A stretch of DNA of 64,000 nt from a virus (IMGVR_UViG_3300044680_000064:9632-73631); one strand, 5' to 3'. Counted from the stretch's first letter, positions 9,615 through 62,525 are shown. Program-made: numbers and translations. Notes: generated by a model from the letters alone, not told the origin.

Positions 9615-10729
9615 TTCAAGATGTTCTGTTCAGCATCACGCCACAACCCGCGCAATTGATTCGACGTCGTGGTCAAACCGTACCTCTTTCTGGCCTCGAA
9701 CAATACGGAACTGAATGGCGTTGCGTCTTTGATGCGCAACGCGAATTCCTTCTGGCTGGTCAAGGCCGCATGGTCGATCCACAACTCAAGTAGGTGAGCG
9801 TACTCTGTCTGTATCTTGGCCTTGAGCTTGTAGAACGCCTCAGAGCATTCCGTGAAGTAAACAAGCAATTCCGATTCCTCTCCCGTTAGCACAAACGGAA
9901 GAAGGTGCTTTGGATTGAATAGGTTGTCGCCTTCGCCGCGCATGCGGTGGAGAGCCAGGTAAGTGGGCGACTTGATCTTGAATCGCCGCCCCCACTTATC
10001 GCGGATGACGACGCCCTCGAACGTTGGATCGGTCTTGCTCTCCTCGGCGAGCCACTCCTGAATCTCTTCAATGCTGTTGAACTGGAATTGCTCAACTTGG
10101 TTCAAAAGCGGGCTACCGTGGTCTGGATGAAGCTCGTGAATCGGGATCTCTTCAACACCTCGGAATGTAGATAGCAGGTAAACCTTTGGCTCATCATATT
10201 TGCGGACGATTTTGTTCCACGGCGATACAAACTCGCAAACGTAAGTGCAGGCCGGATTAAGCACATTATTGATATACGCGGCAAAATACTCGAATCCCAT
10301 CGCCTCGCGGATCGCCTCTTCCCACGTCTTGTCGCATCCATTCCCGATTACGCCGTCAGCGAATGTGCCACGGGTGTTGATCCGCCACTGCCCCTTGTAG
10401 TTGTACAGCAGGACGAGCGAGCCATCGACCTTCTCGGTGCACGTGAAATAGCTGAAGTCGAATTCGGCCATCTCGGTCTGGAACTCACCCCAGTTGAAGA
10501 ATCGCGAAAAGCCCTTGGCGACCACGTTCCAAGTATCGAGCTCGAGGACCAAGCCGCGGCACTCTCGCACGATTGGATTGGTCTTCGGGCTGTCTATTTG
10601 GTCGTAGTTCAGGATGACCAGAGGCAAATCTATATGCAACAGGTTGCTGATGCCGAGCTCAGCTTCAAGATCGCCAAGCGTCTTGCCGCTGCGCAGGTAG
10701 AGCTGAACGTTCAAGAGTCTGTCGGTCAT
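9599..10729 (-). CDS. ATP-dependent RNA ligase, T4 Rnl1-like
   Basis: Motif I TEKVDGSLV. ECRGLVLELD and SRFFNWGE resemble T4 Rnl1 ECRGIMFEMD and EKFFNLNE. Confidence 0.7.
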   Translation of the reverse strand: MTDRLLNVQLYLRSGKTLGDLEAELGISNLLHIDLPLVILNYDQIDSPKTNPIVRECRGLVLELDTWNVVAKGFSRFFNWGEFQTEMAEFDFSYFTCTEKVDGSLVLLYNYKGQWRINTRGTFADGVIGNGCDKTWEEAIREAMGFEYFAAYINNVLNPACTYVCEFVSPWNKIVRKYDEPKVYLLSTFRGVEEIPIHELHPDHGSPLLNQVEQFQFNSIEEIQEWLAEESKTDPTFEGVVIRDKWGRRFKIKSPTYLALHRMRGEGDNLFNPKHLLPFVLTGEESELLVYFTECSEAFYKLKAKIQTEYAHLLELWIDHAALTSQKEFALRIKDATPFSSVLFEARKRYGLTTTSNQLRGLWRDAEQNILKWLKS

Positions 10730-15212: not shown

Positions 15213-15638
15213 ATGCTTCTCATCAAAGATTTCCCGGTTTTTCGTGCAAACTTCGGCGTGTCGCTTGCTGGCTTTGATCTCAAGGAAATCGTTGGGCGAT
15301 TCCCAGAGCAGGCTCCGGGCTCGGTGCCGGTTGTCACAAAGTGCCATGCGACAATCGGCTTTGTGGATTCGCTGCGATACGCTGATGACGGCTCTGTGCT
15401 GGCCCATTTGCAGATTGAGAATTGCGGCGAGCTATTGGCGACAGTTTTGGCAGGTTGCGCCGATTTCAGCGGCTTTGTTCCAAATCCTGAAGTCAAGATT
15501 CTGCCGAAGGCGCACTTGAGCAAGCTGCAAATCTTGGAAGCTCCAAAACCGATTGGTGGGATGAAAAGCGGGAAGCCGCATCCTCCGAGCCCTAGCGACG
15601 ATTTTACCATGCCAGCGAGAAGTTCTGCAAGCAGTTAA
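15213..15638 (+). CDS. hypothetical protein (141 aa)
   Basis: ORF. Confidence 0.4.
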   Translation: MLLIKDFPVFRANFGVSLAGFDLKEIVGRFPEQAPGSVPVVTKCHATIGFVDSLRYADDGSVLAHLQIENCGELLATVLAGCADFSGFVPNPEVKILPKAHLSKLQILEAPKPIGGMKSGKPHPPSPSDDFTMPARSSASS

Positions 15639-21161: not shown

Positions 21162-21959
21162 GTGAGCGACTTCGATATCCGCAAAATCGACTTGGCCAAA
21201 CTCAATAGCCTGACCAAGTACCCGTCGATTCCGACGTACCACGAACTTGGCGACCGCGGCACGCTGAAGGATGTCGTCGGCGTTCAGTTCGACGGCGCGG
21301 CGATCGTAACTGAGAAGGTTGACGGCACCAGCGGCAGAGTCATCTGCTGCCCGGATGGAACAATGATCGTCGGCAGCCGCGAGGAACTTTTGTGGGCTCG
21401 CGGCGATTTGATTGAGAACACGACGCTGCGGATCGTTGAGTCTGTCAAGCCGTACATGGAAAACATCAGGGCGCAGTCGTATCCGAACATCAATAAAATC
21501 GTCGTCCACTTCTTCGAAGTCTATGGAGCCAAGGTGTCGCCTGGGAAAGCGTCGAAGAATTACACGGCGGGCGACGCGACCGGCTGCCGCTTGTTCGACG
21601 TGGCCGTGCTCGTGGATAGTACATGGCAAAAGGTTATGGCGATGGACCGTTCGGAAATATCGCACTGGCGAGAGGGCGGCGGTCAGCATTTCGTGTCGAT
21701 GGAAGTTTTACGCGAGGCCAGCTTCCTGACTTCAATGCCATGCGTCCCAAACCGTGGCTTCTGCACGCCACCAGCAACGATTGACGAAGCCGTCCAGTTG
21801 ATGCGAGAATACTGGGAAAGCAAGTGTCCTCTCGACACGGGCTTATCTGGCCACTGCGAAGGCATCGTCATCCGTTCATCGGATCGCAAGAAGATCGCCA
21901 AGCTCCGTTTCGAGGACTATGAAAAGACTATCAAAGCACGAGAAAGGGTCTCGAAGTGA
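21162..21959 (+). CDS. ATP-dependent RNA ligase, T4 Rnl2-like
   Basis: KYPSIPTYHEL resembles Rnl2 KYSSLENHY. Motif I is EKVDGTS (Rnl2 has EKIHGTN). Motif EGIVIRS. Confidence 0.65.
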   Translation: MSDFDIRKIDLAKLNSLTKYPSIPTYHELGDRGTLKDVVGVQFDGAAIVTEKVDGTSGRVICCPDGTMIVGSREELLWARGDLIENTTLRIVESVKPYMENIRAQSYPNINKIVVHFFEVYGAKVSPGKASKNYTAGDATGCRLFDVAVLVDSTWQKVMAMDRSEISHWREGGGQHFVSMEVLREASFLTSMPCVPNRGFCTPPATIDEAVQLMREYWESKCPLDTGLSGHCEGIVIRSSDRKKIAKLRFEDYEKTIKARERVSK

Positions 21960-22693: not shown

Positions 22694-23077
22694 ATGACAG
22701 CACTTCTCAAGCTCATTTTCTTGACACTTTGTCTGCCCATTCTCGACCAGGGTCCGACGCCAGCGGTTCAATCCGACTCTGACCGATTCAGGATCACCGC
22801 AGTCGAAGCCAAGCGCAATTACGAATTCGCTCTGGAGCACTATAATTGGTGCCAACAAAACGTGCCGAATACGTTATGGGAGCGGCAAGCGCAGTATTGC
22901 TATCAAGCGTGGGATGCGTTGGACAATGTCAAGAGATTCTGTTTTGAAGTGCACGAAGAGCGTATGATTCCAGTAAACTTGGAGAGGCTGCGAGACTTGC
23001 TCGGTCAGGACGCATGGGCTATCGGTCGCATGCCGCCGCCTGCTCCCTATTGGTACTTCCAAGAGAAATCTCGCTGA
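22694..23077 (+). CDS. secreted protein (signal peptide)
   Basis: MTALLKLIFLTLCLPILDQG signal-like N-terminus. ORF 22661-23077. Confidence 0.4.
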   Translation: MTALLKLIFLTLCLPILDQGPTPAVQSDSDRFRITAVEAKRNYEFALEHYNWCQQNVPNTLWERQAQYCYQAWDALDNVKRFCFEVHEERMIPVNLERLRDLLGQDAWAIGRMPPPAPYWYFQEKSR

Positions 23078-24422
23078 CCAGTTTCGATATGCCGTTGTGA
23101 ATCCCATTCATGGCCGCGCGGATCGAACTTTCAGTCTCTTTGTTCAAATCCTTCCATGTATCCAGCGCCGTCTGCCAATCCTTTTTGTGCTTGAGAAGGT
23201 GGCCTTGGATGTCGGCCATTGAAGTCTGCTCTCGCATGCACTCAGCGAACTCTTTTGACCAGTGATGGTCGATGCTCGGGTAGAATCGCTGGAAGATTCT
23301 GGCCGCTTGGATCTTGTCTGCGTAACCGAACTCCAAATCAACATCGGCACGACCAGGTCGGATCAATGCTGGATCTAGTTTGGCTTTGTGGTTCGTCGTC
23401 ATGAAGAGTAGCCGGCCTTCGGTTGCGGCCACGCCGTCGATCGCGTTCAGAATGCCGCTGAATGTGATACTCGTTTTGTCCTTCGTCTCGCCTTCATGAT
23501 TGATGTCGCGAGAAGTGAATATGGCGTCGATGTCTTCAAGCAGAACGACCGCCCCAGTTGGAACCTGACCCATGAGCGAACTCAAGTCGCTATCGCCAAT
23601 CATACGATCGCCTAGATTTAGCATGTAAACGTCGAGCCCGAGCGTGCCGGCAATAGCAACGACAGTCGATGTCTTGCCTGAACCCGGAACGCCGTGGAAA
23701 AGATAGCCGCGGCGGTACGGGATGCCAAGATTGTGATACCACCTCTTGCTCTCGATAAACTCTTTCGCGTCAGCCACGAGACTGTCGAGCATTCCATCGG
23801 GCAGAATCACAGACTCCTGTGGCCGAATCCGTCGTTGCGTCGGTCGCTGCCAATAACTGCCGGTTGACGATATGACCAGCGTCTCTTCGCCATCGCTTGG
23901 AAGTGCCATCTCCATTGCGTCTTGGATGATTTGGCGAATGACCTTTTGGCTGCGCCCGAAGGCCCAGATGCTGAACGTTTCTCGTTGAAAACGACCATCT
24001 CCGCCAGTTCCTTTGCCCGGCGTATCGCCAGACATGCGGCTAAGCCAAATCAGACGTTTTTTGTAGAAGAATACATGCTGGCCAATCGACGGCGTGAAAA
24101 TCAAACGCGGCCGTCGCTTCTTGGCGGCACCAACCGCCGCTCCTATTTCGCATGGTCCATCGTCGGCATCGTCACGGTTGTAAGTCGAGATCGTGATATG
24201 TCGTGATCGCTTGCTGTATGGCTGAAGATCAAGCCACAGTGAAATCCAGTTGAACGCTTGGTCCGTATTCTTGACGTCTCCAGTAACGCCGGAGTGGCGC
24301 CAAAACCAATCCTTCACCTTTCCAGGAATGTTTCGGCAGTAAGCCAATATTCCAGCGATAATCGTCGTGGCCACAAGGCTGACGGTCAACTGGTTTCCGA
24401 TCATAGAAGGATCAAATGGCAT
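23019..24422 (-). CDS. BCS1-like AAA+ ATPase (membrane-anchored)
   Basis: GYLFHGVPGSGKTS Walker A. LLEDIDAIF, SITFSGILNAIDGV and FMTTNHKAKLDPALIRPGRAD closely match the yeast Bcs1 AAA core. N-terminal TM helix. TAG stop. Confidence 0.8.
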   Translation of the reverse strand: MPFDPSMIGNQLTVSLVATTIIAGILAYCRNIPGKVKDWFWRHSGVTGDVKNTDQAFNWISLWLDLQPYSKRSRHITISTYNRDDADDGPCEIGAAVGAAKKRRPRLIFTPSIGQHVFFYKKRLIWLSRMSGDTPGKGTGGDGRFQRETFSIWAFGRSQKVIRQIIQDAMEMALPSDGEETLVISSTGSYWQRPTQRRIRPQESVILPDGMLDSLVADAKEFIESKRWYHNLGIPYRRGYLFHGVPGSGKTSTVVAIAGTLGLDVYMLNLGDRMIGDSDLSSLMGQVPTGAVVLLEDIDAIFTSRDINHEGETKDKTSITFSGILNAIDGVAATEGRLLFMTTNHKAKLDPALIRPGRADVDLEFGYADKIQAARIFQRFYPSIDHHWSKEFAECMREQTSMADIQGHLLKHKKDWQTALDTWKDLNKETESSIRAAMNGIHNGISKLVSEISLGSTNREQAAACDR

Positions 24423-25559
24423 TCAGTCTCCAATTTCGACTTCACCATACATCAAATCCACGGAGTCTTCTTTGCGACTCGAAAAATACTTCTCCAGCTC
24501 GTCGCGCAGCCCGATGCGATCCGGATTGAGTTGGTACACGCCAAACGAGTCGCGGTAAATATCCGTCATCGGATCGTATTGCTGCCGAGCGATGATATGC
24601 TGGCGCTCCCCGTAAAATCGGCGACGCTTGGATCCATGCCAGTGGTGAATGGCGTAGCAATCGACATAGCCAATGTTCTGCTTGCACGCGCGGAGCGCGC
24701 GATCTTGCCAGGCCGCGATCATTTCTCGGTAATGCGGATGACCACCAATCAACTCCGGGCGGTCCTTGCACAATTCCGAATGACCAACTAGGCCAAGAGT
24801 CATATAGTAGTCGGCGGACCCAAGCAAGCAAATGTCGATCATCCCGCCGACAGCATTGAAGGCGTCACGCCGGAATGCCCAGGCGAGGCCGACGGCACCT
24901 ATGCCGCCACTCTGGCGACGGCCTTTCGAGCCCATCTTTAGCTCACAACCGCTGTCGCCACTATCGCCGCCGGCCGCTCCCATCTTCAATGCTGCCTCCA
25001 GCGAGCCTCCAGGCAGGCGATTGGTGCAGTATTTGTACGCGAAGCCGAACTCATGCGACAACGGCCGGTGGGAAGGCGAGACATTGGTGTACGAGCTGAA
25101 AGGCTGGACAAAGGCGTGGTGCTGAAGCGCGTGAATGACTTCAATGCCAAAGTCGCTTCTCGTGAATAGGACGTCGGCGTCGATCCATGCGCCGTATTTC
25201 CACGTCGGATCGAATTTCGACACGCACAAATTAATCTGATTTTCTTTGTGCCACAGCACGTGCCCAGTGCGCAGTTGGAGATGATTCGGATTCTGCGAGT
25301 TCGTGACTTCGAACGGTCGATCGCCGTAGGCCAGCTCGCAGACGTAGACTTCAAGATTCTGAAGTTTCGTCAGGTGCTGATAGCAGTCATTGAAAAGCGA
25401 GATGCGCGACCTGAAGCGATAGGGGTTGGAATACACCATCGCAACGTGAAGAGTCTGGTCCGGCGCCCAGCGGCGATGCGCGGCGGTGCCGTTCTGGTGA
25501 TCGACGACGACCGAGGCTTGATGCGCAGCGTGATGGTGATCGTAATTAGCAGCTTCCAT
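24423..25559 (-). CDS. hypothetical protein, possibly GT-A-like glycosyltransferase (DXD)
   Basis: 378 aa, translationally coupled to the BCS1-like gene. WIDADVLF DXD-like motif. The family call is weak. Confidence 0.35.
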   Translation of the reverse strand: MEAANYDHHHAAHQASVVVDHQNGTAAHRRWAPDQTLHVAMVYSNPYRFRSRISLFNDCYQHLTKLQNLEVYVCELAYGDRPFEVTNSQNPNHLQLRTGHVLWHKENQINLCVSKFDPTWKYGAWIDADVLFTRSDFGIEVIHALQHHAFVQPFSSYTNVSPSHRPLSHEFGFAYKYCTNRLPGGSLEAALKMGAAGGDSGDSGCELKMGSKGRRQSGGIGAVGLAWAFRRDAFNAVGGMIDICLLGSADYYMTLGLVGHSELCKDRPELIGGHPHYREMIAAWQDRALRACKQNIGYVDCYAIHHWHGSKRRRFYGERQHIIARQQYDPMTDIYRDSFGVYQLNPDRIGLRDELEKYFSSRKEDSVDLMYGEVEIGD

Positions 25560-25803
25560 TCACGGCACTCTCTTGTATTGTGGATGCTTGTTGTTTTGGT
25601 AGCCTTACGCCGCATCGGCCGCAAAAATCCGCTACTTGCTTGTGGCCTTCTCGCTTGCATACGCATTCCGGGCAGGTGAAAACAATGCAATCGCCGACCG
25701 TGAATCGGTTCCAGCACTCAACGCATCGGACTGTGTATTCGCCAATGGGCATGTCAAGTTCCGCAACACAAAAACTTTTGACTACTGCTCGCACGAATCG
25801 CAC
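25546..25803 (-). CDS. zinc-finger protein (85 aa)
   Basis: CVEC...CPEC...CGRC pattern. Confidence 0.3.
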   Translation of the reverse strand: MRFVRAVVKSFCVAELDMPIGEYTVRCVECWNRFTVGDCIVFTCPECVCKREGHKQVADFCGRCGVRLPKQQASTIQESAVNGSC

Positions 25804-26112
25804 TCGTCATCGTCCCACGACGAATCGTCGCCGTCATCCTCGTCGTCTGGCACCGGGCGAGCGTGTATCGAGACCATTTCAAACGCTCCGAAAAACGGCG
25901 GCGGTTCGACGCTATCGTACATTCGCTCTCGGACAACGGCACGGAGATCGACGCTCATGCCATATTCTCGATTGTCTTAGGCCGGCCGCGACCGAGTCAA
26001 GCCGGGGAGTCAAAGAGGTGTGGTCGCGGCCGGCATTCGCATGTAATTTTGTTCACTCCCCGGTTCAGAAATAGTAATCTCGCGCGGCTGAAGTGTCAAG
26101 CCCGCTTGCGCG

Positions 26113-26122
26113 GTCGTAGAAT
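26113..26122 (+). promoter_or_regulatory. GTCGTAGAAT promoter-like motif
   Basis: 20 nt upstream of the AAGGAG RBS and ATG 26142. Confidence 0.45.
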
Positions 26123-26141
26123 AGAAAGGAAAGGAGCGATT

Positions 26142-26702
26142 ATGGACAAGTGCATGTGCCCTCATTGCGGCGAAGTCTTCGGTCGCCTTCTCGATAGCTT
26201 GATTCCGACGCACTCTTTCCCGAAACCGACACGAGCTGTCTGCCCAGGGTCAGGACAGGCACCGCGCAATCCAGACACTGATCGAAGGCCGCTATGGAAG
26301 GACGAGAATGCGCACGCGCTCGCGAACGTGCAAAAAGCCAAGCGTGACAACTTGGCTTTCACTTTTAACTCAGTCAAGAAGCCGATACCGCCGCAATGCT
26401 CTGCGATATTTCCCGCGGAGCGGCGCCGTACCGATCGACGTCGCCGAGTTATCGAGATCTTCTTCCCGCCAGAGGCAACACGGTACGACCGCCGCTTTCA
26501 GTTGCTCAAACGACTCGATAAGAGATCGTTCGTCTGGCACTGTGCAGATGACGAGATTCGGATGCGGTTGTGTTGGTTCGCCGAAGGCGTGAGTGGCAGC
26601 GATTGCGCCGTGGACTGCTTGAACTGTTCGAATTGGCTCGGGAAGGTCCGCCCTTACGAGCACGTAGACGTGTGCCAGTTTAACCTGCTCATCCATCTAT
26701 AG
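26142..26702 (+). CDS. Cys-rich hypothetical protein (186 aa)
   Basis: Strong RBS plus the promoter motif. It overlaps the antisense PTH2-like ORF, so one of the two may be spurious. Confidence 0.35.
   Translation: MDKCMCPHCGEVFGRLLDSLIPTHSFPKPTRAVCPGSGQAPRNPDTDRRPLWKDENAHALANVQKAKRDNLAFTFNSVKKPIPPQCSAIFPAERRRTDRRRRVIEIFFPPEATRYDRRFQLLKRLDKRSFVWHCADDEIRMRLCWFAEGVSGSDCAVDCLNCSNWLGKVRPYEHVDVCQFNLLIHL
26370..26696 (-). CDS. peptidyl-tRNA hydrolase PTH2-like ORF (108 aa)
   Basis: VYVLVRADL....VQAVHGA and SIGTAPL resemble PTH2 VVRxDL..GK.AAQ..HA and AIGP. Size fits PTH2. Immediately downstream of the tRNA pair on the same strand. Confidence 0.3.
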   Translation of the reverse strand: MDEQVKLAHVYVLVRADLPEPIRTVQAVHGAIAATHAFGEPTQPHPNLVICTVPDERSLIESFEQLKAAVVPCCLWREEDLDNSATSIGTAPLRGKYRRALRRYRLLD

Positions 26703-26745
26703 CATGACACGATCCTCAAAGTGGATACTGATCGTAAAACACAAG

Positions 26746-26815
26746 AGCCCGGTGCATGAGTTGAACATGCGACCTACGGATTAAAATCCGCCGCTCTACA
26801 CTGAGCTAACCGGGC
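26746..26815 (-). tRNA. degenerate tRNA-Lys(UUU)-like gene with a 6-nt anticodon loop (possible pseudo-tRNA or variant tRNA)
   Basis: Clover-leaf GCCCGGT/ACCGGGC acceptor, GCTC/GAGC D-stem, GCATG-TTCAACT-CATGC T-arm. Anticodon arm GCGGA-UUUUAA-UCCGU, with the loop one nt short of E. coli tRNA-Lys CUUUUAA. D-loop lacks GG. Confidence 0.5.
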
Positions 26816-26820
26816 TTAAG

Positions 26821-26844
26821 GGTCTGGGTTTGCAGCCCAGACCC
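26821..26844. other. perfect 8-bp hairpin between the two tRNAs (processing or structural element)
   Basis: ggtctggg-tttgcagc-ccagaccc. Confidence 0.4.
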
Positions 26845-26930
26845 GAAGAACCCTACTGTCAGGTCTTGCCTGATGCCAGGTTCTCGACCATTCGGGCACC
26901 GCACTGAAGGTCAAGTCATGCGAGGCCCAG

Positions 26931-27004
26931 AACCGGCAGCGGGATTTGAACCCGCGACAAGAACGTTTAGAGCGTTCCACTCTGGCCAGCTGAGTTATGC
27001 CGGT
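26931..27004 (-). tRNA. amber suppressor tRNA (anticodon CUA)
   Basis: Canonical 74-nt clover-leaf: acceptor ACCGGCA/UGCCGGU, U8, D-arm ACUC-AGCUGGCCA-GAGU, anticodon arm GAACG-CUCUAAA-CGUUC (U33, CUA, A37), variable loop UUGUC, T-arm GCGGG-UUCAAAU-CCCGC. Confidence 0.85.
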
Positions 27005-27018
27005 ATCAGTCTTTCGCC

Positions 27019-27028
27019 ATTCTACGAC
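27019..27028 (-). promoter_or_regulatory. GTCGTAGAAT promoter-like motif driving the tRNA cluster
   Basis: Ends 15 nt upstream of the suppressor tRNA 5' end. Confidence 0.45.
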
Positions 27029-27083
27029 CGTTCCCAAAAATCGGCAAGTTCTTTCCGCTTTTCCTGACAGCGGGCCGTCATCC

Positions 27084-27093
27084 GTCGTAAGAT
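27084..27093 (+). promoter_or_regulatory. GTCGTAAGAT variant motif, divergent from the tRNA promoter
   Basis: In the intergenic region upstream of the replication gene. Confidence 0.25.
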
Positions 27094-27366
27094 GTTTGAA
27101 CTGACCATCGTACAGCCATCGTAAACGCGCAAGCCTGAGCCCGCGCTCGGGATTGACGCCGCGCAGGTGTACAAGATATCATTTGTTGATTCGTCCGACA
27201 CCGCCTCTCGAACCGGCGCTCGGATACGTCACGGGATAAGGATCAGAAACACATGACCAGCGACTGAATCCTTCCCAACTGCCGTCCTTGAGATCACCTT
27301 ATCGTCTCCTGGAACGGGTTCGACAGTTGGGCGGGATTCTCTCGCTGGTCAAGAAGGCACACCCCA

Positions 27367-28479
27367 ATGCCAAGGCCGACACTTTTTGAGCATCCCAAGT
27401 TTCACAGGCTCGTCCATGAGCTAAAACTTCCCAGGCCATACGTCCTTGGTCTTCTGGAGTTCCTTTGGCGTCCTGGATACGCATCTGGGAACCCGATTAT
27501 TGGTGACGCAATCGACGTTGAACTGGTCGCCGAATGGCCGGGAACGCCGAACGCACTTGTAACGGAACTCGAAAAACTCCGTTTCATCGACCGTTTGGAA
27601 GATGGTCGTTATCAGATTCATGACCTCTTCGACCACGCTCCGGAGTATGTTTCGGAGCGAAGAAAGCGCGAAAACGAACGCAAAGTGGATAAGACTTGCG
27701 CTTTCTGTTCCGAAATATACCGAAACTCAGACCCAAGATCGACTTACTGTTCATCAAAGTGCAGGTCTGCGGCATGGAGAAAGTCGAATTGTGACGGAAA
27801 TGACACGGAAAATCACGGAAAGAACGAACCGAGCGCAGGTGACGGAACGCAAACGGAAAATCACGGCGCTCTTACTCCCGCGCGCGCTCGCGCTCTTAAA
27901 GAAGAAGAAATACATCTTGCTGCGCAAGATGTCTGCTCGGAGCCGATCAAAGCATCGGCTGCCGAGCCGATGGCTGCCGGCGAGTCCCAAGAGTCGTCCA
28001 AGGTGGTGATGTCTTTCCCGGTGGTTGGCAAGAAGCCAAATAGCGGTTTGACGGAATGGCCTCTCACCGAGGCCAAGGTGGCGGAGTATCAAGAATCTTT
28101 TCCTGGAGTTGACGTGATGGTAGAATGCCGAAAGGCTCGCCAGTGGTGCATTGACAACCCAACGAAACGAAAGACTGTCCGTGGAATGCCAAAGTTTCTC
28201 AGCGGCTGGCTCGCGCGGCAACAAGACCGCGGATCGACTCCAGCGCTTCAAGTCCAAGCGACACCGAAACCGCAAGGCCCGAATGGTCCAGCGCCGGCAG
28301 GCAGATTTCTGACTCCAGATGAGGAAAAACACTATTCGGGAAAATTGGACGAAAATACGCAGCTCCCCTACTGGAAAATCTGCACATGGCCTGGGTATAA
28401 AGAAAAATGCACTTGGCCCTGGTGCGTCGAGCAGCGCCGAAAACTTGCCGAAGAAAATCAAAAAAGAGACGTAGCATGA
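27367..28479 (+). CDS. putative replication initiation or replisome-organizer protein
   Basis: C-terminal TEWPLTEAKVAEYQESFPGVDVMVE...NPTKRKTVRGMPKFLSGWLARQQDR motif, typical of phage replication proteins. CxxC finger in the middle. Confidence 0.45.
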   Translation: MPRPTLFEHPKFHRLVHELKLPRPYVLGLLEFLWRPGYASGNPIIGDAIDVELVAEWPGTPNALVTELEKLRFIDRLEDGRYQIHDLFDHAPEYVSERRKRENERKVDKTCAFCSEIYRNSDPRSTYCSSKCRSAAWRKSNCDGNDTENHGKNEPSAGDGTQTENHGALTPARARALKEEEIHLAAQDVCSEPIKASAAEPMAAGESQESSKVVMSFPVVGKKPNSGLTEWPLTEAKVAEYQESFPGVDVMVECRKARQWCIDNPTKRKTVRGMPKFLSGWLARQQDRGSTPALQVQATPKPQGPNGPAPAGRFLTPDEEKHYSGKLDENTQLPYWKICTWPGYKEKCTWPWCVEQRRKLAEENQKRDVA

Positions 28480-28952
28480 ATCCATTCGCTGACAAGTTGA
28501 CACTAAAATTCGACGGCTCTTGCGAACCGCGCAATCCGGGCGGCGTGGCGACGTATGGATACGTCATCACGGCACCGGATGGCTCAATCGTCAAAGAGAC
28601 CGGAGGACTCGTCTGCAAGGGCGCCGGCGCGACGAACAACGTGGCTGAATATTCAGCTCTCGGCTTCGCGTTGCGATTCCTTGGCGACGAGCAGTGGCTC
28701 GGCAGTCTCGATATTTTTGGCGACTCTCAACTGGTCATCAAACAACTCACCGGAGAATGGGCGTGCAACAAAGAACATCTGCAACGACTGCGCGCCAGAT
28801 GTTTGGAGTTGCTCGATGTCGTCGCCAAGGGAAAATGGACGGCAACGTGGATACCGAGAGAGCAAAACAAACGGGCCGACAAGCATAGCCAAGAGGCTTA
28901 TGAACGCGAGACGGGATTGACATATCCCGAGAGAAGGAAAAAAACAAAATGA
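28476..28952 (+). CDS. ribonuclease H (RNase HI-like)
   Basis: FDGSCEPRNPGG...AEYSALGFALRFL...GDSQLVIKQLTGEW...REQNKRADKHSQ. ATGA overlap with the upstream gene. Confidence 0.75.
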   Translation: MNPFADKLTLKFDGSCEPRNPGGVATYGYVITAPDGSIVKETGGLVCKGAGATNNVAEYSALGFALRFLGDEQWLGSLDIFGDSQLVIKQLTGEWACNKEHLQRLRARCLELLDVVAKGKWTATWIPREQNKRADKHSQEAYERETGLTYPERRKKTK

Positions 28953-30784
28953 CGGATCAGGTGGGTTCAGCTATGCAAAGAGTGAATCTCGACAACATTC
29001 CAAAGTCACTGACAGAGCTACGTCAGTGGGTCGTCTGGAAAATGGCCAGGCGCTCTCCAGACGACAAAGAAGAAACAAAACTGCCGTTCCAAATTAATGG
29101 CGATTTTGCGGAAGCGGACAATCCCGAAACATGGTGTAGTTGGGGCTCGGCAAGATCGGCATATCAGTACGGCGATTACCGCGGCGTCGGATTCGAGTTC
29201 AGTGTCGATGATCCGTTTTGCGGTGTTGATTTGGACAAGTGCAGAAATCCAAAGACGGGCAAGGTCTCCGAATGGGCGAGAGAAATAATTCTGAAATTTG
29301 CGAGCTATGCCGAAGTCTCTCCGTCCGAAACTGGTGTCAAGATTTTCTGTCGTGGCAAATCGCCATTCGACCGCGGGCGAAAAAAGAAATTCCCGGAACT
29401 CGAAAAAGTCTGCGATGATCCGAAGGACGTTGCGATCGAAATCTACGATCAGCGGCGCTACTTCGCAGTCACCGGCTGGCGTTTGGGCGGCGTTCCGCAC
29501 GAACCGACCGAGTGCCAGGAACATCTCGAATGGCTGAAGTCGAAATATTTCAATGACGATCCGAAACCAGTTCAAGACTTCCGGAGCGGCGATGCAGTCT
29601 TCGAACGCGCTCGCAAGTATCTCGAAAAACTGCCGGCCGCTGTAAGCGGCTCCAACGGCCACGGCGCCACATTCCACGCTGCCTGCGTTCTCGTTCTCGG
29701 CTTTGAATTATCCGAGAGCGAAGCGATGTCACTCATGCGAGAATACAATGCACGCTGCCAACCATCGTGGTCTGAACGTGAATTGGAACACAAAGTAAAA
29801 TCGGCGTTTAAGCAACCAGGCCAGAGAGGGTTTCTTCGTAATTCGGCACCGGACAAATGGCAGGGTATTTCGGTGCCGGATTATGCTGCATCTCTGCCGC
29901 CCGAGCCGAAGACGACGACGTTGGTTGAAGCGACCAAGGGATACATCGAGTCGATTCGAAATGGGCAAGTTCCTCTCATCAGCACGAGCATTCCGGATTT
30001 GGATTTTGCGTTGAGTGGTGGACTTGAAAGAAGCGAAATGGTGATCTTCGCAGCCCGCCCTTCACATGGAAAATCACTTGCCGCATTGCAACTCGTCCAC
30101 CATTGGACCGCAACGGGAATTCCATGTGCCATTGTGAGCGAAGAAATGTCGCCGATGATGCTCGGCAAGCGCACTTTGCACTTTGTCAGCGCTCTGCATC
30201 AAGAGCACTGGCATCACGAAATTTGCCAACTCGAACACGAGATCGCCCAGTACGAAACAACGCATGCGCCGTGTCCAATTTTCGAGTCATGCGGCACGGC
30301 ACAAAAGGCAGTTGAATGTATCGAGCGATCGGTCGAAGAACATGGTGTTCGTTGCGCAGTGGTTGACTACGCGCAGCTTTTGCGATCGCCAGGTAAAACA
30401 CGATACGAGCAGGTTACAAACACGAGTATCGCCCTTCGTCAGTTAGCCAATCGCTGCAAAATAACGCTGTTGGTTTTGTGCCAACTCAATCGCGAGATCG
30501 AGCACCGGCCTACATTCACGCCGACATTGGCTGACATTAAAGAAACCGGCCAGCTCGAGCAGGACGCTGACGTTGTCGTTGGATTGTCATGGCCGTACAA
30601 GATGAACACGGAGGAGCCGCCAGATAAATACCAATTCCACATTCTGAAAAATCGCAACCGAGGAATCCGAGAAGCGTGTGTCAATTGCCGACTGGTTGCT
30701 GACCGCCAGATGATCCTCGATCCGCATCCAGGCCAATTCGGAATCGAGGCCGCTCATCCGCACCAACAAGGCATTCAGTTCTAA
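28949..30784 (+). CDS. bifunctional primase-polymerase (PrimPol) fused to DnaB-like replicative helicase
   Basis: N-terminal PrimPol-like LRQWVVWK...LPFQINGDFAEADNPETW. C-terminal RecA-like core with FAARPSHGKSLAALQL and VVDYAQLL. Confidence 0.8.
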   Translation: MTDQVGSAMQRVNLDNIPKSLTELRQWVVWKMARRSPDDKEETKLPFQINGDFAEADNPETWCSWGSARSAYQYGDYRGVGFEFSVDDPFCGVDLDKCRNPKTGKVSEWAREIILKFASYAEVSPSETGVKIFCRGKSPFDRGRKKKFPELEKVCDDPKDVAIEIYDQRRYFAVTGWRLGGVPHEPTECQEHLEWLKSKYFNDDPKPVQDFRSGDAVFERARKYLEKLPAAVSGSNGHGATFHAACVLVLGFELSESEAMSLMREYNARCQPSWSERELEHKVKSAFKQPGQRGFLRNSAPDKWQGISVPDYAASLPPEPKTTTLVEATKGYIESIRNGQVPLISTSIPDLDFALSGGLERSEMVIFAARPSHGKSLAALQLVHHWTATGIPCAIVSEEMSPMMLGKRTLHFVSALHQEHWHHEICQLEHEIAQYETTHAPCPIFESCGTAQKAVECIERSVEEHGVRCAVVDYAQLLRSPGKTRYEQVTNTSIALRQLANRCKITLLVLCQLNREIEHRPTFTPTLADIKETGQLEQDADVVVGLSWPYKMNTEEPPDKYQFHILKNRNRGIREACVNCRLVADRQMILDPHPGQFGIEAAHPHQQGIQF

Positions 30785-32684: not shown

Positions 32685-35492
32685 ATGGCGATCCCGCAGA
32701 AAAAACTCGATACACTTCGTCTCATCATCGCGGATCCAAAAACGGACCCGAAACTTCGCGCCGATGCTGAAGCATGTCTCGTCCGTGAGGCCACATTCGA
32801 AGAACGCTGTCCGTGGGCTTGCTACGAAGGCAGGCCGATCGAGTACGCGGAGCGCTTTCACGGCTTCCGCCTCACGCAAGATCAGAAGAAGATGTGCACG
32901 TATCTTCTTCAGCCGCCATATCGACTGCACGTTGACTCGGCCCACGGAGTTGGCAAATCGTGGCTGATGGCACTTCTGACAAACTGGTTTTTTGATACCT
33001 ACGATCCAGGCGTCGCGATCACCACCGGCCCGAGCGACAAATCGGTTCGCCAAAACATCTGGGGTCGCGTTCGTGAGATGCGTCAGGACATCAAGAAGAA
33101 GATCGCCAACTATCCATTCGCGATGATGCCGAGCAGCCCCGAGATGAAGACTGGAGAGTCGCATTGGGCCGTTGGCCAGGTCGCAGCGAAAGCCGAAGCA
33201 TTCCAGGGGAAACACTGGGAATATATGTTCTTCGGATTCGACGAGTCCGAGGGCTTGCCGGAGATTTATTTTGAGACCACCACGTCGATGTTCAAGTCGA
33301 ATGGGAAGCATTTCTGGTTCTCGATTTGCAATCCGCTATCGACCAGCTCTCCGGTGTATCTGAACACGCAAAAGATCGACTACGTCGGCCAAATGCTTTG
33401 GCGGCTCATGTCCGTGTCGGCGTTGAATCACGACAACATCAAAATCCAGATGAACGATGAAGGCAACGACACCGGCGTTGACCCGCCGATACCAGGCGCT
33501 GTGACGCTCGACCAGATTGACGACTGGATCACGGAGTACGGCTGCGACAAACTTGGACAAGGCGAGAAGCCTCAGCCGGGCGACTTCCAGTGGCGACCCA
33601 AGAAAACTAACGCGTGCCCGGAATGCGGATTGATATTTCAAAATCCAGTGGGCGGAGTTTTCCCGAAGCACGGGCAATCGCCGACCAAGCCTGATGGCTG
33701 CGAAGGAACTGGGCTGATAGCCGGTAATTGGTGGCGCCCGTCAGGGCTTGCCGAATCACGCATTCTTGGACGGCGCCCGAGCCACGGCGTCGAGGGTATT
33801 TGGAGCTCTGCGCTCTGGGAGTATTGCGAGAATCGGACAGAAGAGACTGCGATCCCATTTCCGCTTGACGAATTCCCGGAGTTCGGCTGCTTTGTCGCAG
33901 GAACTCTTGTGGAAACAAAATCTGGTCCTGTGCCGATAGAACAACTGAATGCTGGCGACATGGTTCTGACGCGGCAGGGATACAAGCGAGTGAAGGCGGC
34001 TTTTTGCACCGGGATACAACAAACACACACCCTGGTCTGCGAAAACGGACAAACTCTGACTGGGACAGGTAATCATCCAATTTGGGACGGCCACGGGTGG
34101 AAATCTCTTGGTTCGTTGACGAATCATGATATAATTTACACATGGAAACCAGCGAATACGAATACATTGAATATGACGGAATTGTTTGGCATAGAAAACC
34201 GCAAGCGAAACGGATATGGGAGCGAAACTATTTCCGCGGATACATTCCAAGACGCGGCGATATTCCCAGACGAAAACACTATCCGCTCCATCGGTATGTT
34301 TGGGAAAAATTCAACGGGCCGATTCCGAAAAGCCTCTGCATCCACCATAAGGACGAAGACACGTCCAATAACGACATCACTAATCTCGAACTACTCACGC
34401 GATCAGAGCACAGTAAGATTCATTCGGACAACTGGCGAGTCGTCCGAACAAGTGAATGTGAATTTTGCGGAAAAGAGTATCAGCACATTAGTGTGCCGTC
34501 TCGATTCTGTTCCAACAAATGCAAATGCGCATGGCGAAGAAAAAACAAAGTTGACAATGAGACCAGAACATGCAGCGAATGCTCAGTTTCATTCTCGTGT
34601 TGCAAATACGAACCAGCCACAACTTGTTCCCGTTTCTGTACGAACAAGAAATCTTGGAAAACTCGAAGAGGTCTACAACATAACAGTTGAGGATTGTCAC
34701 GAGTATTTCGCCAATGGTGTCCTCGTTCATAATTGTGACGTAGCTCGCTTTGGAGATGATGCAACTGGCTTCCACGGGCGCTGGGGCGGCGTCTCGCTGG
34801 TTCACGATCAGAAGTACGGATGGGACACAAACCAGATCGCCGGCCGACTCAAGGAAATGTGCGACGAGATGGCGCAGTTTGCAAACGCGGTGCGATTAGC
34901 AGCAGCGGTCAAGGCCGGCACGGAAAAGAACTTCAAGCCGTTCTATCCGCATCAATTTCCAGTCAAGATCGACTGCACTGGCGGCTGGGGCGGCGGCGTG
35001 CGCGACAAACGAGACAATTACAACTTCATCGAGATCAACTCATCCAGCACGGCCTATGCGGACTTGAAATATCCGAACATCCGTAGCGAGCTTTGGTTCC
35101 AAGTTGCCGAGAGGGCGCGGATGGGTCTTCTTGATTTGTCGCGGCTTGATGAGGCCGATCGGCAGGCGCTGAAGATCGAAGCGCTAGCGGTCAAATATTC
35201 GTTTGATTCGGCTGGAAGAAAGGTCGTCGAAAAGAAAGATGAGACGAAGAAAAGACTCAAACGATCTCCGGACAATGCCGACAGTTTTTGCCTAGCATTT
35301 TTGCATCACGGCCAAGCAGTTCCGCACATGGTCGGTCAAGAAATGACATCATCGCGCGGCGGACATGAAACTCTGGCGGCGAAGTTCGGAACGCTAGGGC
35401 GAGGCCCAAACTCAACTCGTGATCGCCACACGTTCGACTATGGCGCACAGCCGAAACCGGAACGCCGGTTCAAGACACTTGGAAGGCGTTAG
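32685..35492 (+). CDS. terminase large subunit containing an intein
   Basis: ATPase Walker A SAHGVGKS and Walker B FFGFDESEG. C-terminal nuclease motifs DVARFGDDATG, IDCTGGWGGG, SPDNADSF. Interrupted by Hint blocks. TAG stop. Confidence 0.8.
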   Translation: MAIPQKKLDTLRLIIADPKTDPKLRADAEACLVREATFEERCPWACYEGRPIEYAERFHGFRLTQDQKKMCTYLLQPPYRLHVDSAHGVGKSWLMALLTNWFFDTYDPGVAITTGPSDKSVRQNIWGRVREMRQDIKKKIANYPFAMMPSSPEMKTGESHWAVGQVAAKAEAFQGKHWEYMFFGFDESEGLPEIYFETTTSMFKSNGKHFWFSICNPLSTSSPVYLNTQKIDYVGQMLWRLMSVSALNHDNIKIQMNDEGNDTGVDPPIPGAVTLDQIDDWITEYGCDKLGQGEKPQPGDFQWRPKKTNACPECGLIFQNPVGGVFPKHGQSPTKPDGCEGTGLIAGNWWRPSGLAESRILGRRPSHGVEGIWSSALWEYCENRTEETAIPFPLDEFPEFGCFVAGTLVETKSGPVPIEQLNAGDMVLTRQGYKRVKAAFCTGIQQTHTLVCENGQTLTGTGNHPIWDGHGWKSLGSLTNHDIIYTWKPANTNTLNMTELFGIENRKRNGYGSETISADTFQDAAIFPDENTIRSIGMFGKNSTGRFRKASASTIRTKTRPITTSLISNYSRDQSTVRFIRTTGESSEQVNVNFAEKSISTLVCRLDSVPTNANAHGEEKTKLTMRPEHAANAQFHSRVANTNQPQLVPVSVRTRNLGKLEEVYNITVEDCHEYFANGVLVHNCDVARFGDDATGFHGRWGGVSLVHDQKYGWDTNQIAGRLKEMCDEMAQFANAVRLAAAVKAGTEKNFKPFYPHQFPVKIDCTGGWGGGVRDKRDNYNFIEINSSSTAYADLKYPNIRSELWFQVAERARMGLLDLSRLDEADRQALKIEALAVKYSFDSAGRKVVEKKDETKKRLKRSPDNADSFCLAFLHHGQAVPHMVGQEMTSSRGGHETLAAKFGTLGRGPNSTRDRHTFDYGAQPKPERRFKTLGRR
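33888..34733 (+). mobile_element. intein (282 aa) inserted at the start of the TerL nuclease domain
   Basis: Block A CFVAGTLVET, block B TGTGNHPIW, blocks F/G VYNITVEDCHEYFANGVLVHN followed by the C-extein Cys (CDVARFGDD). Confidence 0.75.
34142..34690 (+). CDS. HNH homing endonuclease encoded inside the intein in an alternate frame
   Basis: HHKDEDTSNNDITNLELLTRSEH HNH motif plus Cys-rich C-terminal zinc-ribbon repeats. Frame differs from the TerL/intein frame. TGA stop 3 codons upstream and TATAAT at 34130-34135. Confidence 0.6.
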   Translation: METSEYEYIEYDGIVWHRKPQAKRIWERNYFRGYIPRRGDIPRRKHYPLHRYVWEKFNGPIPKSLCIHHKDEDTSNNDITNLELLTRSEHSKIHSDNWRVVRTSECEFCGKEYQHISVPSRFCSNKCKCAWRRKNKVDNETRTCSECSVSFSCCKYEPATTCSRFCTNKKSWKTRRGLQHNS

Positions 35493-40586: not shown

Positions 40587-41798
40587 ATGTCAGCACGTGG
40601 ACTTGATCCAGAAAAGATAAAACAGATCGAAGAAATGCACCGGGCCGGCAAGACAAATCAAGAAATAAGGATCAAACTAAAGCTCTGCGAGAACACGGTC
40701 CTCAAGTACGTCCACGCCTTCGACGCGGGCGACGATCCTATCGCTCAGCACGACCGTAGAATCCAACAGCAGCGCGCAATTGAAGATCGTGTGAAGTCGA
40801 TCAAGGAAATACACTTCCGCCAGTTCCTCGAAAAGTGCATCGCCGAACAAGTCCAGCCACTCGAAATACCTAAGAAGCCGAAAGAGCGACCATCGCGGCG
40901 CCGATCCTGCCGCGCGCACGAGCGATATCCGCTCTTGACGCTAACCGATTGGCACTATGAAGAGACCGTCAATCCGGAAGGCGTACTCGAGCTGAACCAG
41001 TATTCAATCTCGATCGCTTGCAAGCGAATCTGGCGAGTTGTCCACTCATGCCTTGATTGGAAACGCGACATGGAGGCGAGCGGCCGGTACGTGATGCCGG
41101 AGTTAGTCGTCGCGCTCATGGGCGACATGATGACCGGCACGCTGCACGGCCTGGAACGCCATTCCGGCGCGCAGAATATCGTGCGGGCAGCGCTGGGATG
41201 CGGCGACTTGATCTCGCTCGTGCTCGCTGATCTGGCCGCGGCATTCCCGCGGATCAAGGTTGTCGGCGTCGTCGGCAATCACGGGCGGTTGCCGGACGAC
41301 AAGAAAGTGCCGACGAAAGACCCGACGCGCAGTTGGGATTTCCTCGCGTATCAGGTCGCGAAGAGGCGGCTTACCAACGTCAGTACCATTTCGTGGGATT
41401 TGCCGAACGCTTATGGCCGACTGTTTGATGTCGGCACGCATCCCTGTTATTTGGCTCACGGAAATTTCATTCAAAACAATCTCGGCATCGTAGGATATGG
41501 TGTACGCAGATTTTCTTCGGCATTGGCGAGCAATCTGAACGCGGCCGGCAAGTCGCTTCGGTACTGCTTCTTCGGTCACTGGCACCAGCAGAGCGCGGCG
41601 GAGTTCGCCGGCATGAGCACGTTCATCTGTCCGTCGCTCATCGGCACACAGGAGTATTCGTTCCTGTCGGGTGGGGCGGTTAATCGACCTGCTCAGCAGA
41701 TGTATATCATGGATAGAGAACTCGGCCTTGTGTCCCAAGAGACTTTCTACGGAGATGGTCCAGAAACAAATCCTGGCTCATACCAACTGGAGCTTTGA
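40587..41798 (+). CDS. calcineurin-like metallophosphoesterase with N-terminal HTH
   Basis: LMGDMMTG, VVGNHG, GHWH motifs. N-terminal KTNQEIRIKLKLCENTVLKYV HTH. Confidence 0.6.
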   Translation: MSARGLDPEKIKQIEEMHRAGKTNQEIRIKLKLCENTVLKYVHAFDAGDDPIAQHDRRIQQQRAIEDRVKSIKEIHFRQFLEKCIAEQVQPLEIPKKPKERPSRRRSCRAHERYPLLTLTDWHYEETVNPEGVLELNQYSISIACKRIWRVVHSCLDWKRDMEASGRYVMPELVVALMGDMMTGTLHGLERHSGAQNIVRAALGCGDLISLVLADLAAAFPRIKVVGVVGNHGRLPDDKKVPTKDPTRSWDFLAYQVAKRRLTNVSTISWDLPNAYGRLFDVGTHPCYLAHGNFIQNNLGIVGYGVRRFSSALASNLNAAGKSLRYCFFGHWHQQSAAEFAGMSTFICPSLIGTQEYSFLSGGAVNRPAQQMYIMDRELGLVSQETFYGDGPETNPGSYQLEL

Positions 41799-41801
41799 TC
41801 C

Positions 41802-42383
41802 ATGCGAGCCGATTGGCTTCACGACGGACCAATTCTCGGCAAGAGCCGCATGTACTCCATGCTCGCGGCCGGCGCGTTCGGCAACACAATTCCGCAATGG
41901 TTTAATCTTGACGAGTGGGAGCAATCCGCAGACGCCGCGCGCTATGCGACATGGGGCGTGCGCACGCTCGTTGCTGGCGGTCCATGCCGACTGTATTGCC
42001 CGCGTGAGGAAGTCCGCTCAACGGCGGAGCGCCCAGAGTATCGCGCGGCGGGCGTGAACATTTCGATGATGATCGACGCCATCGTCAATGCCACTCTCTG
42101 GGCTGATGTATATGATTCGGAAGACGGCTTAATTGTGTACGGCGTTCTTAATCCGCCGCGCGGAGCTTCGTGGCGAAAGCTGATGCCGAGCGAGGGCCGT
42201 GAGTACCGCGGAATCGCGGCGCAGATGCTACTCAAGCAAAAGTTGAATCCGAACAGTCTTGCCGATCTTGAGGCGCTGCGGGATCGCTGGCCTGGCCACG
42301 TTTACGAATTGTCCGCGTGCGAAAAGTGCATCGGAGTTATACCGCATCGAAACGGTGTGGTGTGGGAAGTCAGAAACTATTAG
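41802..42383 (+). CDS. hypothetical protein (193 aa)
   Basis: ORF. Confidence 0.35.
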   Translation: MRADWLHDGPILGKSRMYSMLAAGAFGNTIPQWFNLDEWEQSADAARYATWGVRTLVAGGPCRLYCPREEVRSTAERPEYRAAGVNISMMIDAIVNATLWADVYDSEDGLIVYGVLNPPRGASWRKLMPSEGREYRGIAAQMLLKQKLNPNSLADLEALRDRWPGHVYELSACEKCIGVIPHRNGVVWEVRNY

Positions 42384-42390
42384 GAAAACC

Positions 42391-42954
42391 ATGAAAACAA
42401 AGGTATTTCTGGACATGGATGGTGTGCTTGTTGATTTCGTGTCTGGCGCGTGCGCGGCGCATGGGATGCCAAACCCATACAAAGTCGATCCGATCAAGAG
42501 TCGCGGCGAATGGGGAATCGAAGCTCTTCTCGGTGTCTCGCCAGCGATGTTCTGGAAACCTCTTGGATTCGAGTTCTGGGCGAATCTCGATTGGATGCCA
42601 GACGGCCGCGAGATTCTAAAGCAAGTCGAGTTCTTTGTTGACATTGAAAACATCTGCATCCTGACCTCTCCATGCGACACGCCGGGTTGTATCGACGGCA
42701 AACGCGAATGGATAAAAAACAACATACCAGAATACAGGAAACAGATTCTTGTCGGGGCCGCGAAGCAATTTGTCGCCGGTCCAGGGAAAGTGTTGATCGA
42801 CGATTATCAGAACAACACAGACAAGTTCATCGACCACGGCGGCGAAGCGGTACTGATTCCGAGAATTTGGAACTCGTCATGGATGTTTGAAAAGGAACGG
42901 TCATCATCATTGGCTATCGGTGGCTACTTTGGCAAGCCAACCATTCGTGGATGA
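42391..42954 (+). CDS. HAD-family 5'(3')-deoxyribonucleotidase-like hydrolase
   Basis: VFLDMDGVLVDF (HAD motif I, NT5C-like). Internal ATG of ORF 42259-42954. Confidence 0.55.
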   Translation: MKTKVFLDMDGVLVDFVSGACAAHGMPNPYKVDPIKSRGEWGIEALLGVSPAMFWKPLGFEFWANLDWMPDGREILKQVEFFVDIENICILTSPCDTPGCIDGKREWIKNNIPEYRKQILVGAAKQFVAGPGKVLIDDYQNNTDKFIDHGGEAVLIPRIWNSSWMFEKERSSSLAIGGYFGKPTIRG

Positions 42955-62281: not shown

Positions 62282-62512
62282 TTGGACGGCATGTTCAGTT
62301 CGGAATTGAGCGCGGAAGGTCCATACAACGGCTCTCTCTCGATTTCGCAAGGCAGCACGACGGCTGTTACGTTTGCCACTGGCAACAGCGGCCCGAGCTT
62401 CACCGTTACCTATCGCTGGTCTGACATTTCTTTGGACGCTGCGGTCCACAATCAGGTGGTTCGCTGCTCGATTCAGGGCATATCGACCGGCACGTTTTCG
62501 ATCACACTTTGA
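62282..62512 (+). CDS. small structural-module protein (76 aa or longer)
   Basis: The frame is open from about 62180. Could be a gene remnant or short tail protein next to the endonuclease insertion. Confidence 0.3.
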   Translation: MDGMFSSELSAEGPYNGSLSISQGSTTAVTFATGNSGPSFTVTYRWSDISLDAAVHNQVVRCSIQGISTGTFSITL

Positions 62513-62525
62513 TTGAAGGATTTTC

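Follow-up and report, generated by a model that had tools for sequence, protein, structure and literature searches.

A phage tRNA gene derived from tRNA-Lys(UUU), with contracted anticodon and D loops, lies beside an intact CUA tRNA and may be a disabled copy

The RNA ligases of phage T4 (Rnl1, which acts with Pnkp, and Rnl2) mend the tRNA-Lys that has been cut by PrrC, and coliphages which encode a tRNA-Lys(UUU) also carry rnl1 and rnl2 (PMC10264068). The AriB protein of PARIS cleaves tRNA-Lys in the sequence U36AAUC/A41, where the stroke marks the cut between positions 40 and 41; AriB also contacts the D loop, the change A41C lowers cleavage, and the authors of that study raised the idea that viral tRNAs might act as AriB inhibitors (PMC12409363). 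Substitutions distinguish the nuclease-insensitive phage tRNAs, among them the tRNA-Lys(UUU) of T5 (against AriB) and the variants of van den Berg et al.; these tRNAs have retained a 7-nt anticodon loop and rescue translation (PMC10264068, PMC12409363). Anticodon loops of a non-standard size are seldom met with, and no function is known for those reported from phages (PMC5009743). Transfer RNAs with an 8-nt loop can decode and cause +1 shifts (PMC4238358, PMC9094753); in the SufJ and sufA6 type of frameshift suppressor the larger loop comes from a base inserted on a 5-bp stem (PMC4238358). Our literature searches found neither a natural tRNA with a 6-nt anticodon loop and a demonstrated function, nor a tRNA decoy of the kind considered below.

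The gene described here, tRNA-X, lies in a 64-kb window (the whole stretch of 64,000 nucleotides that was analysed) of phage DNA, whose genes include those for a primase-helicase (28949-30784), for RNase H (28476-28952) and for a large terminase interrupted by an intein (32685-35492, plus strand), besides a Mu-type portal protein (47506-51282), a sigma factor, a GroES-like protein and a Mu gp36-like protein. The Hint/Intein_splicing domains of the terminase intein occupy residues ~400-690. No DNA match to the window was found in deposited phage genomes, and the closest public proteins were 66% identical for the primase and 43% identical for a 370-aa protein encoded beside the tRNAs. The planctomycete Frigoriglobus tundricola (CP053452.2) harbours a prophage that is distantly related, with a primase 53% identical, which hints at planctomycete hosts for this phage group. 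That prophage (locus L150, 3928-5321) sits beside a tRNA-Val(CAC) gene, with a tyrosine integrase. Over 21.8 kb that include both of its tRNA genes, the window agrees at every position with a separate Logan assembly of run SRR35360315 (100% identity), and no further tRNA was found in the 10 kb to the right of the window.

tRNA-X is a 70-nt gene on the minus strand (26815 to 26746), delimited by Rfam, ARAGORN, folding and alignment. An earlier note on this DNA had described it as a second cloverleaf, about 115 nt downstream of a suppressor-type tRNA on the same strand, and had named a covariance model as the means of checking it; against Rfam RF00005 (Infernal) it scores 58.8 bits (E 3.7e-10; gathering score 29) over the full model, positions 1-71, with one gap in the D loop, one in the anticodon loop and none elsewhere. 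The RNA reads GCCCGGU-UA-GCUC-AGUGUA-GAGC-G-GCGGA-UUUUAA-UCCGU-AGGUC-GCAUG-UUCAACU-CAUGC-ACCGGGC-U. All 21 of its 21 stem pairs form (stems of 7, 4, 5 and 5 bp), with G27-U43 as the sole wobble; U8, A14 and A21 are in place and the T loop, UUCAACU, fits UUCRANY, as expected of a cloverleaf. This cloverleaf is also the minimum-energy fold (-31.6 kcal/mol, z = -4.8), and none of 200 shuffled sequences was as stable. A permissive Rfam scan of 25500-27600 found no structured RNA besides the two tRNAs.

It is in the loops and at the 3′ end that tRNA-X departs from a normal tRNA-Lys. The D loop (AGUGUA, 26797-26802, minus strand, placed by the covariance model and by alignment to tRNA-Lys) is 6 nt long, 2 nt shorter than the AGUCGGUA of annotated tRNA-Lys genes, and has a single G where G18G19 is normal, so that the G18-G19 elbow pair is absent; the earlier note had likewise read a short D loop lacking GG. 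The anticodon arm, GCGGA-UUUUAA-UCCGU (26776-26791, with the loop at 26781-26786, minus strand, placed by alignment to tRNA-Lys), has a loop of 6 nt in place of the usual seven with U33 and a purine at 37, and here too the reading of the earlier note stands, being borne out by the sequence, by the covariance model and by ARAGORN. The last of these reports 'tRNA-???' at 26745-26815 on the minus strand with the two-base anticodon 'tt', its way of marking a loop of 6 nt. The acceptor stem is followed by U73, where tRNA-Lys has A73, and CCA is not encoded. The A73 discriminator is a minor identity element for LysRS.

The tRNA-Lys type that had been assigned to this gene at first reading is upheld by blastn and alignment. 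Searched against deposited phages, tRNA-X found as its nearest annotated phage tRNAs mostly tRNA-Lys, and we aligned it with four tRNA-Lys sequences, from Streptomyces phage Shady, Erwinia phage pEp_SNUABM_01, mycobacteriophage Adzzy and the attP of Haemophilus phage S2. Three of the four share the anticodon stem GCGGA/UCCGU with tRNA-X, and their loop is CUUUUAA or CUCUUAA where tRNA-X has UUUUAA. Because the stem is identical and the loop lacks only C32 relative to these annotated genes, tRNA-X, judged by this alignment, is a tRNA-Lys(UUU) minus C32: the canonical arm GCGGA-CUUUUAA-UCCGU has 17 nt and that of tRNA-X has 16. Besides the stem and the 3′ side of the loop (shared with the S2/HP1 attP and pEp_SNUABM_01 genes), it resembles bacterial and phage tRNA-Lys(UUU) in the D stem, in the variable loop AGGUC and in a T arm of the GGUCGCA..GUUC..UC..UGCAC type. 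It differs in lacking C32, in its D loop and in U73; the acceptor stem has a sequence other than that of tRNA-Lys, yet is fully paired. UUUU is present, but not UUU at 34-36 of a 7-nt loop, and with C32 missing the decoding register is therefore undefined.

The loss of this base is predicted to change the shape of the anticodon arm. With 6 bp closed by a UUUA tetraloop the whole molecule has -31.6 kcal/mol, with 5 bp and a 6-nt loop -30.6 kcal/mol, and with 4 bp and an 8-nt loop -29.5 kcal/mol; this last form, which the earlier note had offered as an alternative, lies 2.1 kcal/mol above the minimum. The form with 6 bp and 4 nt is both the minimum-energy and the centroid fold, its extra U-A pair having a probability of 0.81 in the whole tRNA; folded in isolation, the arm has -5.8 kcal/mol against -4.2 kcal/mol for the canonical one. 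When C32 was restored in silico, the usual 5-bp stem and 7-nt loop returned. Modelling therefore favours the closed 6-bp arm as preferred, although, because the energy differences are small, not as locked: opening to 6 or 8 nt would cost 1-2 kcal/mol, and thermodynamics alone therefore leaves decoding possible. A closed tetraloop arm would leave no 7-membered loop for the U33 turn that presents U34-U35-U36, and a single D-loop G would weaken the elbow contact with the T loop. With the arm closed, the U33 turn lost and the elbow weaker, tRNA-X probably no longer reads AAA/AAG normally.

The neighbour of tRNA-X is an intact tRNA of amber-suppressor type (27004 to 26931, minus strand; Rfam 63.1 bits, ARAGORN anticodon cta), with the loop CUCUAAA, A1-U72 and U73. 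It lies upstream of tRNA-X with a measured spacer of 115 nt, which agrees with the distance in the earlier note; 'downstream on the same strand' holds in the RNA sense, with the correction that, in window coordinates, the two genes lie on the minus strand. No close homologue of this CUA tRNA was found among deposited phages or among the loci that we fetched. A leftward sigma-70-like promoter, TTGCCG-17-TAGAAT (27047 to 27019, minus strand), ends 15 nt before it, and rightward promoter-like sites at 27064-27093 and 27153-27182 point towards the replication genes. The tRNA pair thus lies at a divergent promoter region, with six promoter-like sites in 1.8 kb against 0.7 expected. Folding of a 361-nt region gave a G+C-rich hairpin of 9 bp in the spacer, GGGUCUGGG-CUGCAAA-CCCAGACCC (26820-26844, minus strand), which ends 4 nt before tRNA-X; as no U tract follows, it is not an intrinsic terminator. 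None was found after tRNA-X either, nor any terminator-like site in the region scanned. We infer that tRNA-X and the CUA tRNA are probably co-transcribed from the leftward promoter, and that tRNA-X is probably trimmed as any tRNA would be, since its acceptor and T arms, by which RNase P and the 3′ enzymes recognise a tRNA, are canonical. Some 1.2 kb beyond tRNA-X, on the tRNA strand, there is a leftward gene pair (23019-25559, minus strand) that encodes a BCS1-like AAA ATPase and a 378-aa protein that matched no family. We considered and rejected a role in defence or anti-defence for this downstream operon, the only signal being a weak IetA-like (PADLOC)/AAA one.

Our preferred reading, to which we give a probability of about one half, is that tRNA-X is a disabled tRNA-Lys copy, a pseudo-tRNA without a function of its own. 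According to this reading a phage copy of tRNA-Lys(UUU) would have lost nucleotide 32 and two bases of the D loop while its stems and T loop stayed intact, and the phage's working counter-measure to tRNA damage would be RNA ligation, not tRNA-X. The lysine ancestry with its exact lesion at C32, and the closed geometry of the arm, argue for such a copy; so do the phage's lack of need for tRNA-X in recoding (below) and the rarity of odd loop sizes, which in the reported phage cases have no known function (PMC5009743). Against it stand the 21 intact pairs, the intact T loop and the high Rfam score, which are unlike long neutral decay, and the two separate loop contractions that came with no stem damage at all. 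A promoter ahead, an intact tRNA beside it, the ligases of the same genome and the cost of only 1-2 kcal/mol for opening the loop also count against a dead gene. tRNA-X shares its ARAGORN label with the phage pseudo-tRNAs, or 'tRNA-???' calls, that have 6- or 8-nt loops, but unlike those odd calls it combines a high score and perfect stems with a nameable ancestry and lesion. If it is only a crippled tRNA-Lys, then tRNA-X is an ordinary by-product of phage tRNA gene turnover, and a caution that a gene may score high against a covariance model and yet have an anticodon loop that does not work.

The disabled-copy reading is further favoured by how seldom such a gene recurs, with no sign of selection in the viral or genome collections. 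The exact arm with its flanks had no match in 2.9 million viral contigs, and the pattern GTAGAGC-N6-TTTTAA-N6-GGTC had three matches there, none of them a tRNA with a 6-nt loop. A similar pattern gave 17 matches in 185,579 species genomes, of which only two were tRNA-like, one in a Patescibacteria MAG (between the 23S and 5S rRNA genes) and the other in a Microcoleus assembly. No tRNA was found near the primase gene in relatives at 50-66% primase identity; a synteny search through relatives of the primase-helicase (from viral and metagenome collections), the AAA ATPase and the 370-aa protein, and through contigs with close proteins, found no tRNAs in the corresponding position and no relative closer than 66%. 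Nor was there a tRNA-X-like neighbour at 20 viral loci whose CUA tRNAs share the T arm. Blastn of both tRNAs against all fetched loci found no homologue, and blastn of tRNA-X against E. coli genomes gave no match. With only two sporadic look-alikes and no viral homologue, no selection is seen for genes of this type, and because neither homologue nor recurrence was found, an argument for function from conservation is not available. We saw no evidence that such a variant is under selection or has a function, having found no homologue, no second phage example and no close relative of the phage; among the variant, decoy and pseudo-tRNA that the earlier note had offered, we lean towards the last.

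The Patescibacteria gene (locus L113, 5335-5407, minus strand; UBA2100, DCYW01000034.1) is tRNA-Lys-like, with the loop UUUUAA and an Rfam score of 60.8 bits, and the 23S gene beside it contains a group I intron. Either the assembly is wrong here or a chromosomal tRNA is able to work with a loop of 6 nt.

The phage encodes two RNA ligases, 5 and 16 kb away from tRNA-X. One is a 376-aa protein of the T4 RNA ligase 1 (RnlA) family (9599-10729, minus strand; Pfam PF09511, E 3.9e-19), which matches the T4 Rnl1 chains 2c5u and 5tt6 of the PDB with E about 1e-13, and NCBIfam TIGR02308 with E 2.8e-19, below the equivalog cut-off. The other, of 265 aa (21162-21959, plus strand), belongs to the PF09414 nucleotidyltransferase family (Pfam E 9e-9) and matches phrog_548, 'RNA ligase', with E 6e-9. 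No polynucleotide kinase-phosphatase (Pnkp) was detected among the phage genes scanned. The phage also encodes a metallophosphoesterase-like protein (40587-41798) and an NT5C/HAD-like one (42259-42954). The presence of an Rnl1-family ligase together with a second RNA ligase suggests, by analogy, tRNA-damage warfare around this phage, and since their T4 counterparts repair PrrC-cut tRNA-Lys, tRNA-Lys is plausibly a battleground. As in T4, an Rnl1-family ligase and a second RNA ligase accompany a tRNA-Lys-type gene; the arrangement differs from that of T4 in lacking a detected Pnkp and in the distance of the ligases from tRNA-X.

This context lends some weight to a second reading, which we regard as possible but on balance unlikely, that tRNA-X is a decoy, inhibitor or sponge: a non-decoding mimic offered to a nuclease or toxin directed at tRNA-Lys (PrrC/RloC, AriB or acceptor-end toxins), which would spare the host tRNA-Lys while the phage ligases repair what has been cut. 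The intact stems, the high score, the promoter and the ligases in the same genome are consistent with this, as is the confinement of the lesions to the loops used for decoding and for nuclease contacts. At the position of the AriB site tRNA-X reads U36AAUC/C41, with an altered D loop, and A41C is the change that reduces AriB cleavage, while the D loop is touched by AriB (PMC12409363). A mimic is also favoured by other viral contigs whose tRNA-like genes combine this short D arm with an abnormal anticodon arm, for example that of locus L102 (described below). Against it, the arm has no homologue or recurrence in viral or genome collections, no such decoy was found in the literature, no Pnkp partner was found, and the known resistant phage tRNAs keep a 7-nt loop and decode. 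tRNA-X is like those insensitive tRNAs (that of T5 against AriB and the van den Berg et al. variants) in being altered in the anticodon stem-loop, with C41, but unlike them it has lost a base, which should harm its decoding, and conservation is lacking; C41 alone is not enough to place it in their class, whose members have a substitution, a 7-nt loop and retained decoding. Of the nuclease theme in the earlier note, then, the part that gains is the setting, through the two ligases, and the part that suffers is the likeness to known insensitive tRNAs, none of which shows a contracted loop.

A stronger form of the mimic proposal, in which tRNA-X is kept deliberately as an RNA decoy beside the repair ligases and the elements at loci L098, L086, L087 and L102 (the last with a GNRA tetraloop and CCA) belong to the same class of non-decoding tRNA mimics, seems to us unlikely. 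In that case the closed anticodon loop and trimmed D loop would bar tRNA-X from translation, while defence nucleases or toxins aimed at tRNA-Lys would go on binding it. Should tRNA-X be expressed and bind nucleases that target tRNA-Lys, it would become the first tRNA decoy in nature to be defined by loop contraction, and if this were true a single genome would link a stop-codon tRNA, a non-decoding mimic of tRNA-Lys and two RNA ligases.

A third reading, which we consider distinctly doubtful, is that tRNA-X is a working decoder through the form with a 4-bp stem and the 8-nt loop AUUUUAAU. When the weak A31-U39 pair is opened, this loop equals the normal Lys loop with one extra 3′ base. In the register A32 U33 UUU A37 A38 plus the extra base it would read AAA/AAG, as an insensitive tRNA-Lys or a +1 shifter, and in the register UUA it would act on UAA. 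Its distance of only 2.1 kcal/mol from the minimum, the ability of 8-nt-loop tRNAs to decode and to cause +1 shifts (PMC4238358, PMC9094753), the stop-codon tRNA next to it and the 74% share of TGA among the stops can be cited in its favour. tRNA-X is like the SufJ and sufA6 suppressors in having a non-standard loop from which 8 nt can be reached; it differs from them in that its arm is one base short and not long (16 nt against 17), the 8-nt form requiring a 4-bp stem where theirs arises from an inserted base on 5 bp (PMC4238358). Conserved examples are also lacking. Under the identity rules of LysRS, U73 in place of A73 together with an altered anticodon loop is expected to weaken recognition. 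This predicted loss, along with that of the G18/G19 contact, counts against efficient decoding by tRNA-X.

The stop codons of the phage also speak against a decoder and for a copy that is not needed. In 93 genes, called with a codon-usage score whose training set was the genes predicted on the Logan contig, the stops were TGA 69 times (74%), TAG 12 times and TAA 12 times, and TAG ends genes with complete Pfam domains, namely the AAA ATPase and the terminase (TerL). Long in-frame extensions followed TAA or TAG in 6 of 24 cases and TGA in 10 of 69, which is no enrichment (Fisher p = 0.35). Stop-codon recoding was therefore rejected, there being no depletion of TAG or TAA beyond the preference for TGA and no excess of read-through. 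TAG and TAA are ordinary stops in this phage, without a sign of recoding, and neither the CUA tRNA nor a hypothetical reader of UAA or quadruplets is needed for decoding the 64-kb window. An ochre suppressor would have UUA in a 7-nt loop and in-frame TAA codons; tRNA-X has a 6-nt loop, and extensions past TAA/TAG are not enriched.

For the CUA tRNA itself, the phage shows no in-frame TAG, and 12 of its 93 genes end with TAG as an ordinary stop. Two open reading frames on the plus strand, 59267-59839 and 59867-60313, are in the same frame with TAA and nine sense codons between them, and the second has no obvious Shine-Dalgarno sequence before its ATG; the pair may be due to chance or give a TAA read-through product. 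In-frame neighbours of this kind also follow 57483-58625 and 15213-15638.

It is improbable, in our view, that tRNA-X is an artefact or a minority variant of a gene that is truly a normal tRNA-Lys(UUU) with a 7-nt loop. In favour of such an error, the lesion is a single base beside a T run, both genome look-alikes are sporadic, and one of them lies in a Patescibacteria rRNA operon, where a working tRNA is expected. On the other side, the separate Logan assembly shows no difference over 21.8 kb, what is lacking is C32 and not a T of the run, and the D loop is independently 2 nt shorter. If GGATTTTAATCC (in the RNA sense) is uniform in the SRR35360315 reads this would speak against an artefact, and a mixture with GGACTTTTAATCC would speak for one.

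Hardly to be entertained is an attP remnant, that is, a tRNA-Lys copy carried as in Haemophilus phages HP1/S2: the full tRNA-Lys in the HP1/S2 attP is 82% identical to tRNA-X, and the Frigoriglobus prophage relative lies beside a tRNA gene with an integrase, but no integrase adjoins tRNA-X, none was found in the genes scanned across the 64-kb window (group 20, 62282-63868, left out) or in precomputed Pfam matches for genes in the 10 kb beyond it, tRNA-X is full length with its own promoter context and is paired with the CUA tRNA, and such a copy would be expected to match an intact host tRNA.

Odd calls similar to tRNA-X occur in other viral contigs, with a 6-nt loop at locus L098 and an 8-nt loop at locus L088. 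The elements at L098 (390-459, plus strand), L086 (4497-4566, minus strand) and L087 (192-265, minus strand) are tRNA-like and have a short D arm of 17 nt, TTAGCTCAGTGTAGAGC. Their anticodon loops read CGUAAG (6 nt) at L098, GAUAA or CGAUAAG without U33 at L086, and CGUUAGG with G33 and 'UUA' at L087; all of the recognisable tRNAs that were found with the D arm TTAGCTCAGTGTAGAGC had a non-standard anticodon loop. At L102 (IMGVR_UViG_3300010233_000087, 6166-6233, minus strand) there is a tRNA-like element of 39.7 bits (Rfam) that has the short D arm AGUGUA, a perfect acceptor stem, an encoded CCA and an anticodon arm made of a 4-bp stem and a GCAA tetraloop, and it adjoins a tRNA with the anticodon UCA.

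L088 (IMGVR_UViG_3300010356_003188) holds a GOLLD RNA (5230-5709, plus strand; Rfam 181.5 bits) beside a cluster of eight ordinary tRNAs, and inside this RNA is a tRNA-like element whose D arm is the same short one and whose anticodon loop has 8 nt (ARAGORN 'tttg'). A further tRNA-like family, AAUUAGCUCAGUGUAGAGCGUCCG...GGUCGGGGUGUCGAAACCCCAUCAUUGU, is conserved in viral contigs (L085, L089, L091-L097, L099, L101 and L103). Its members have varied 7-nt 'anticodon' loops (UCA, UUA, CAU and others), a non-canonical T loop and a weak acceptor stem; AAUUAGCUCAGUGUAGAGCGUCCG...GGUCGGGGUGUCGAAACCCCAUCAUUGU elements are not called by ARAGORN, and most of their loci hold an ordinary tRNA-Met within about 1 kb.
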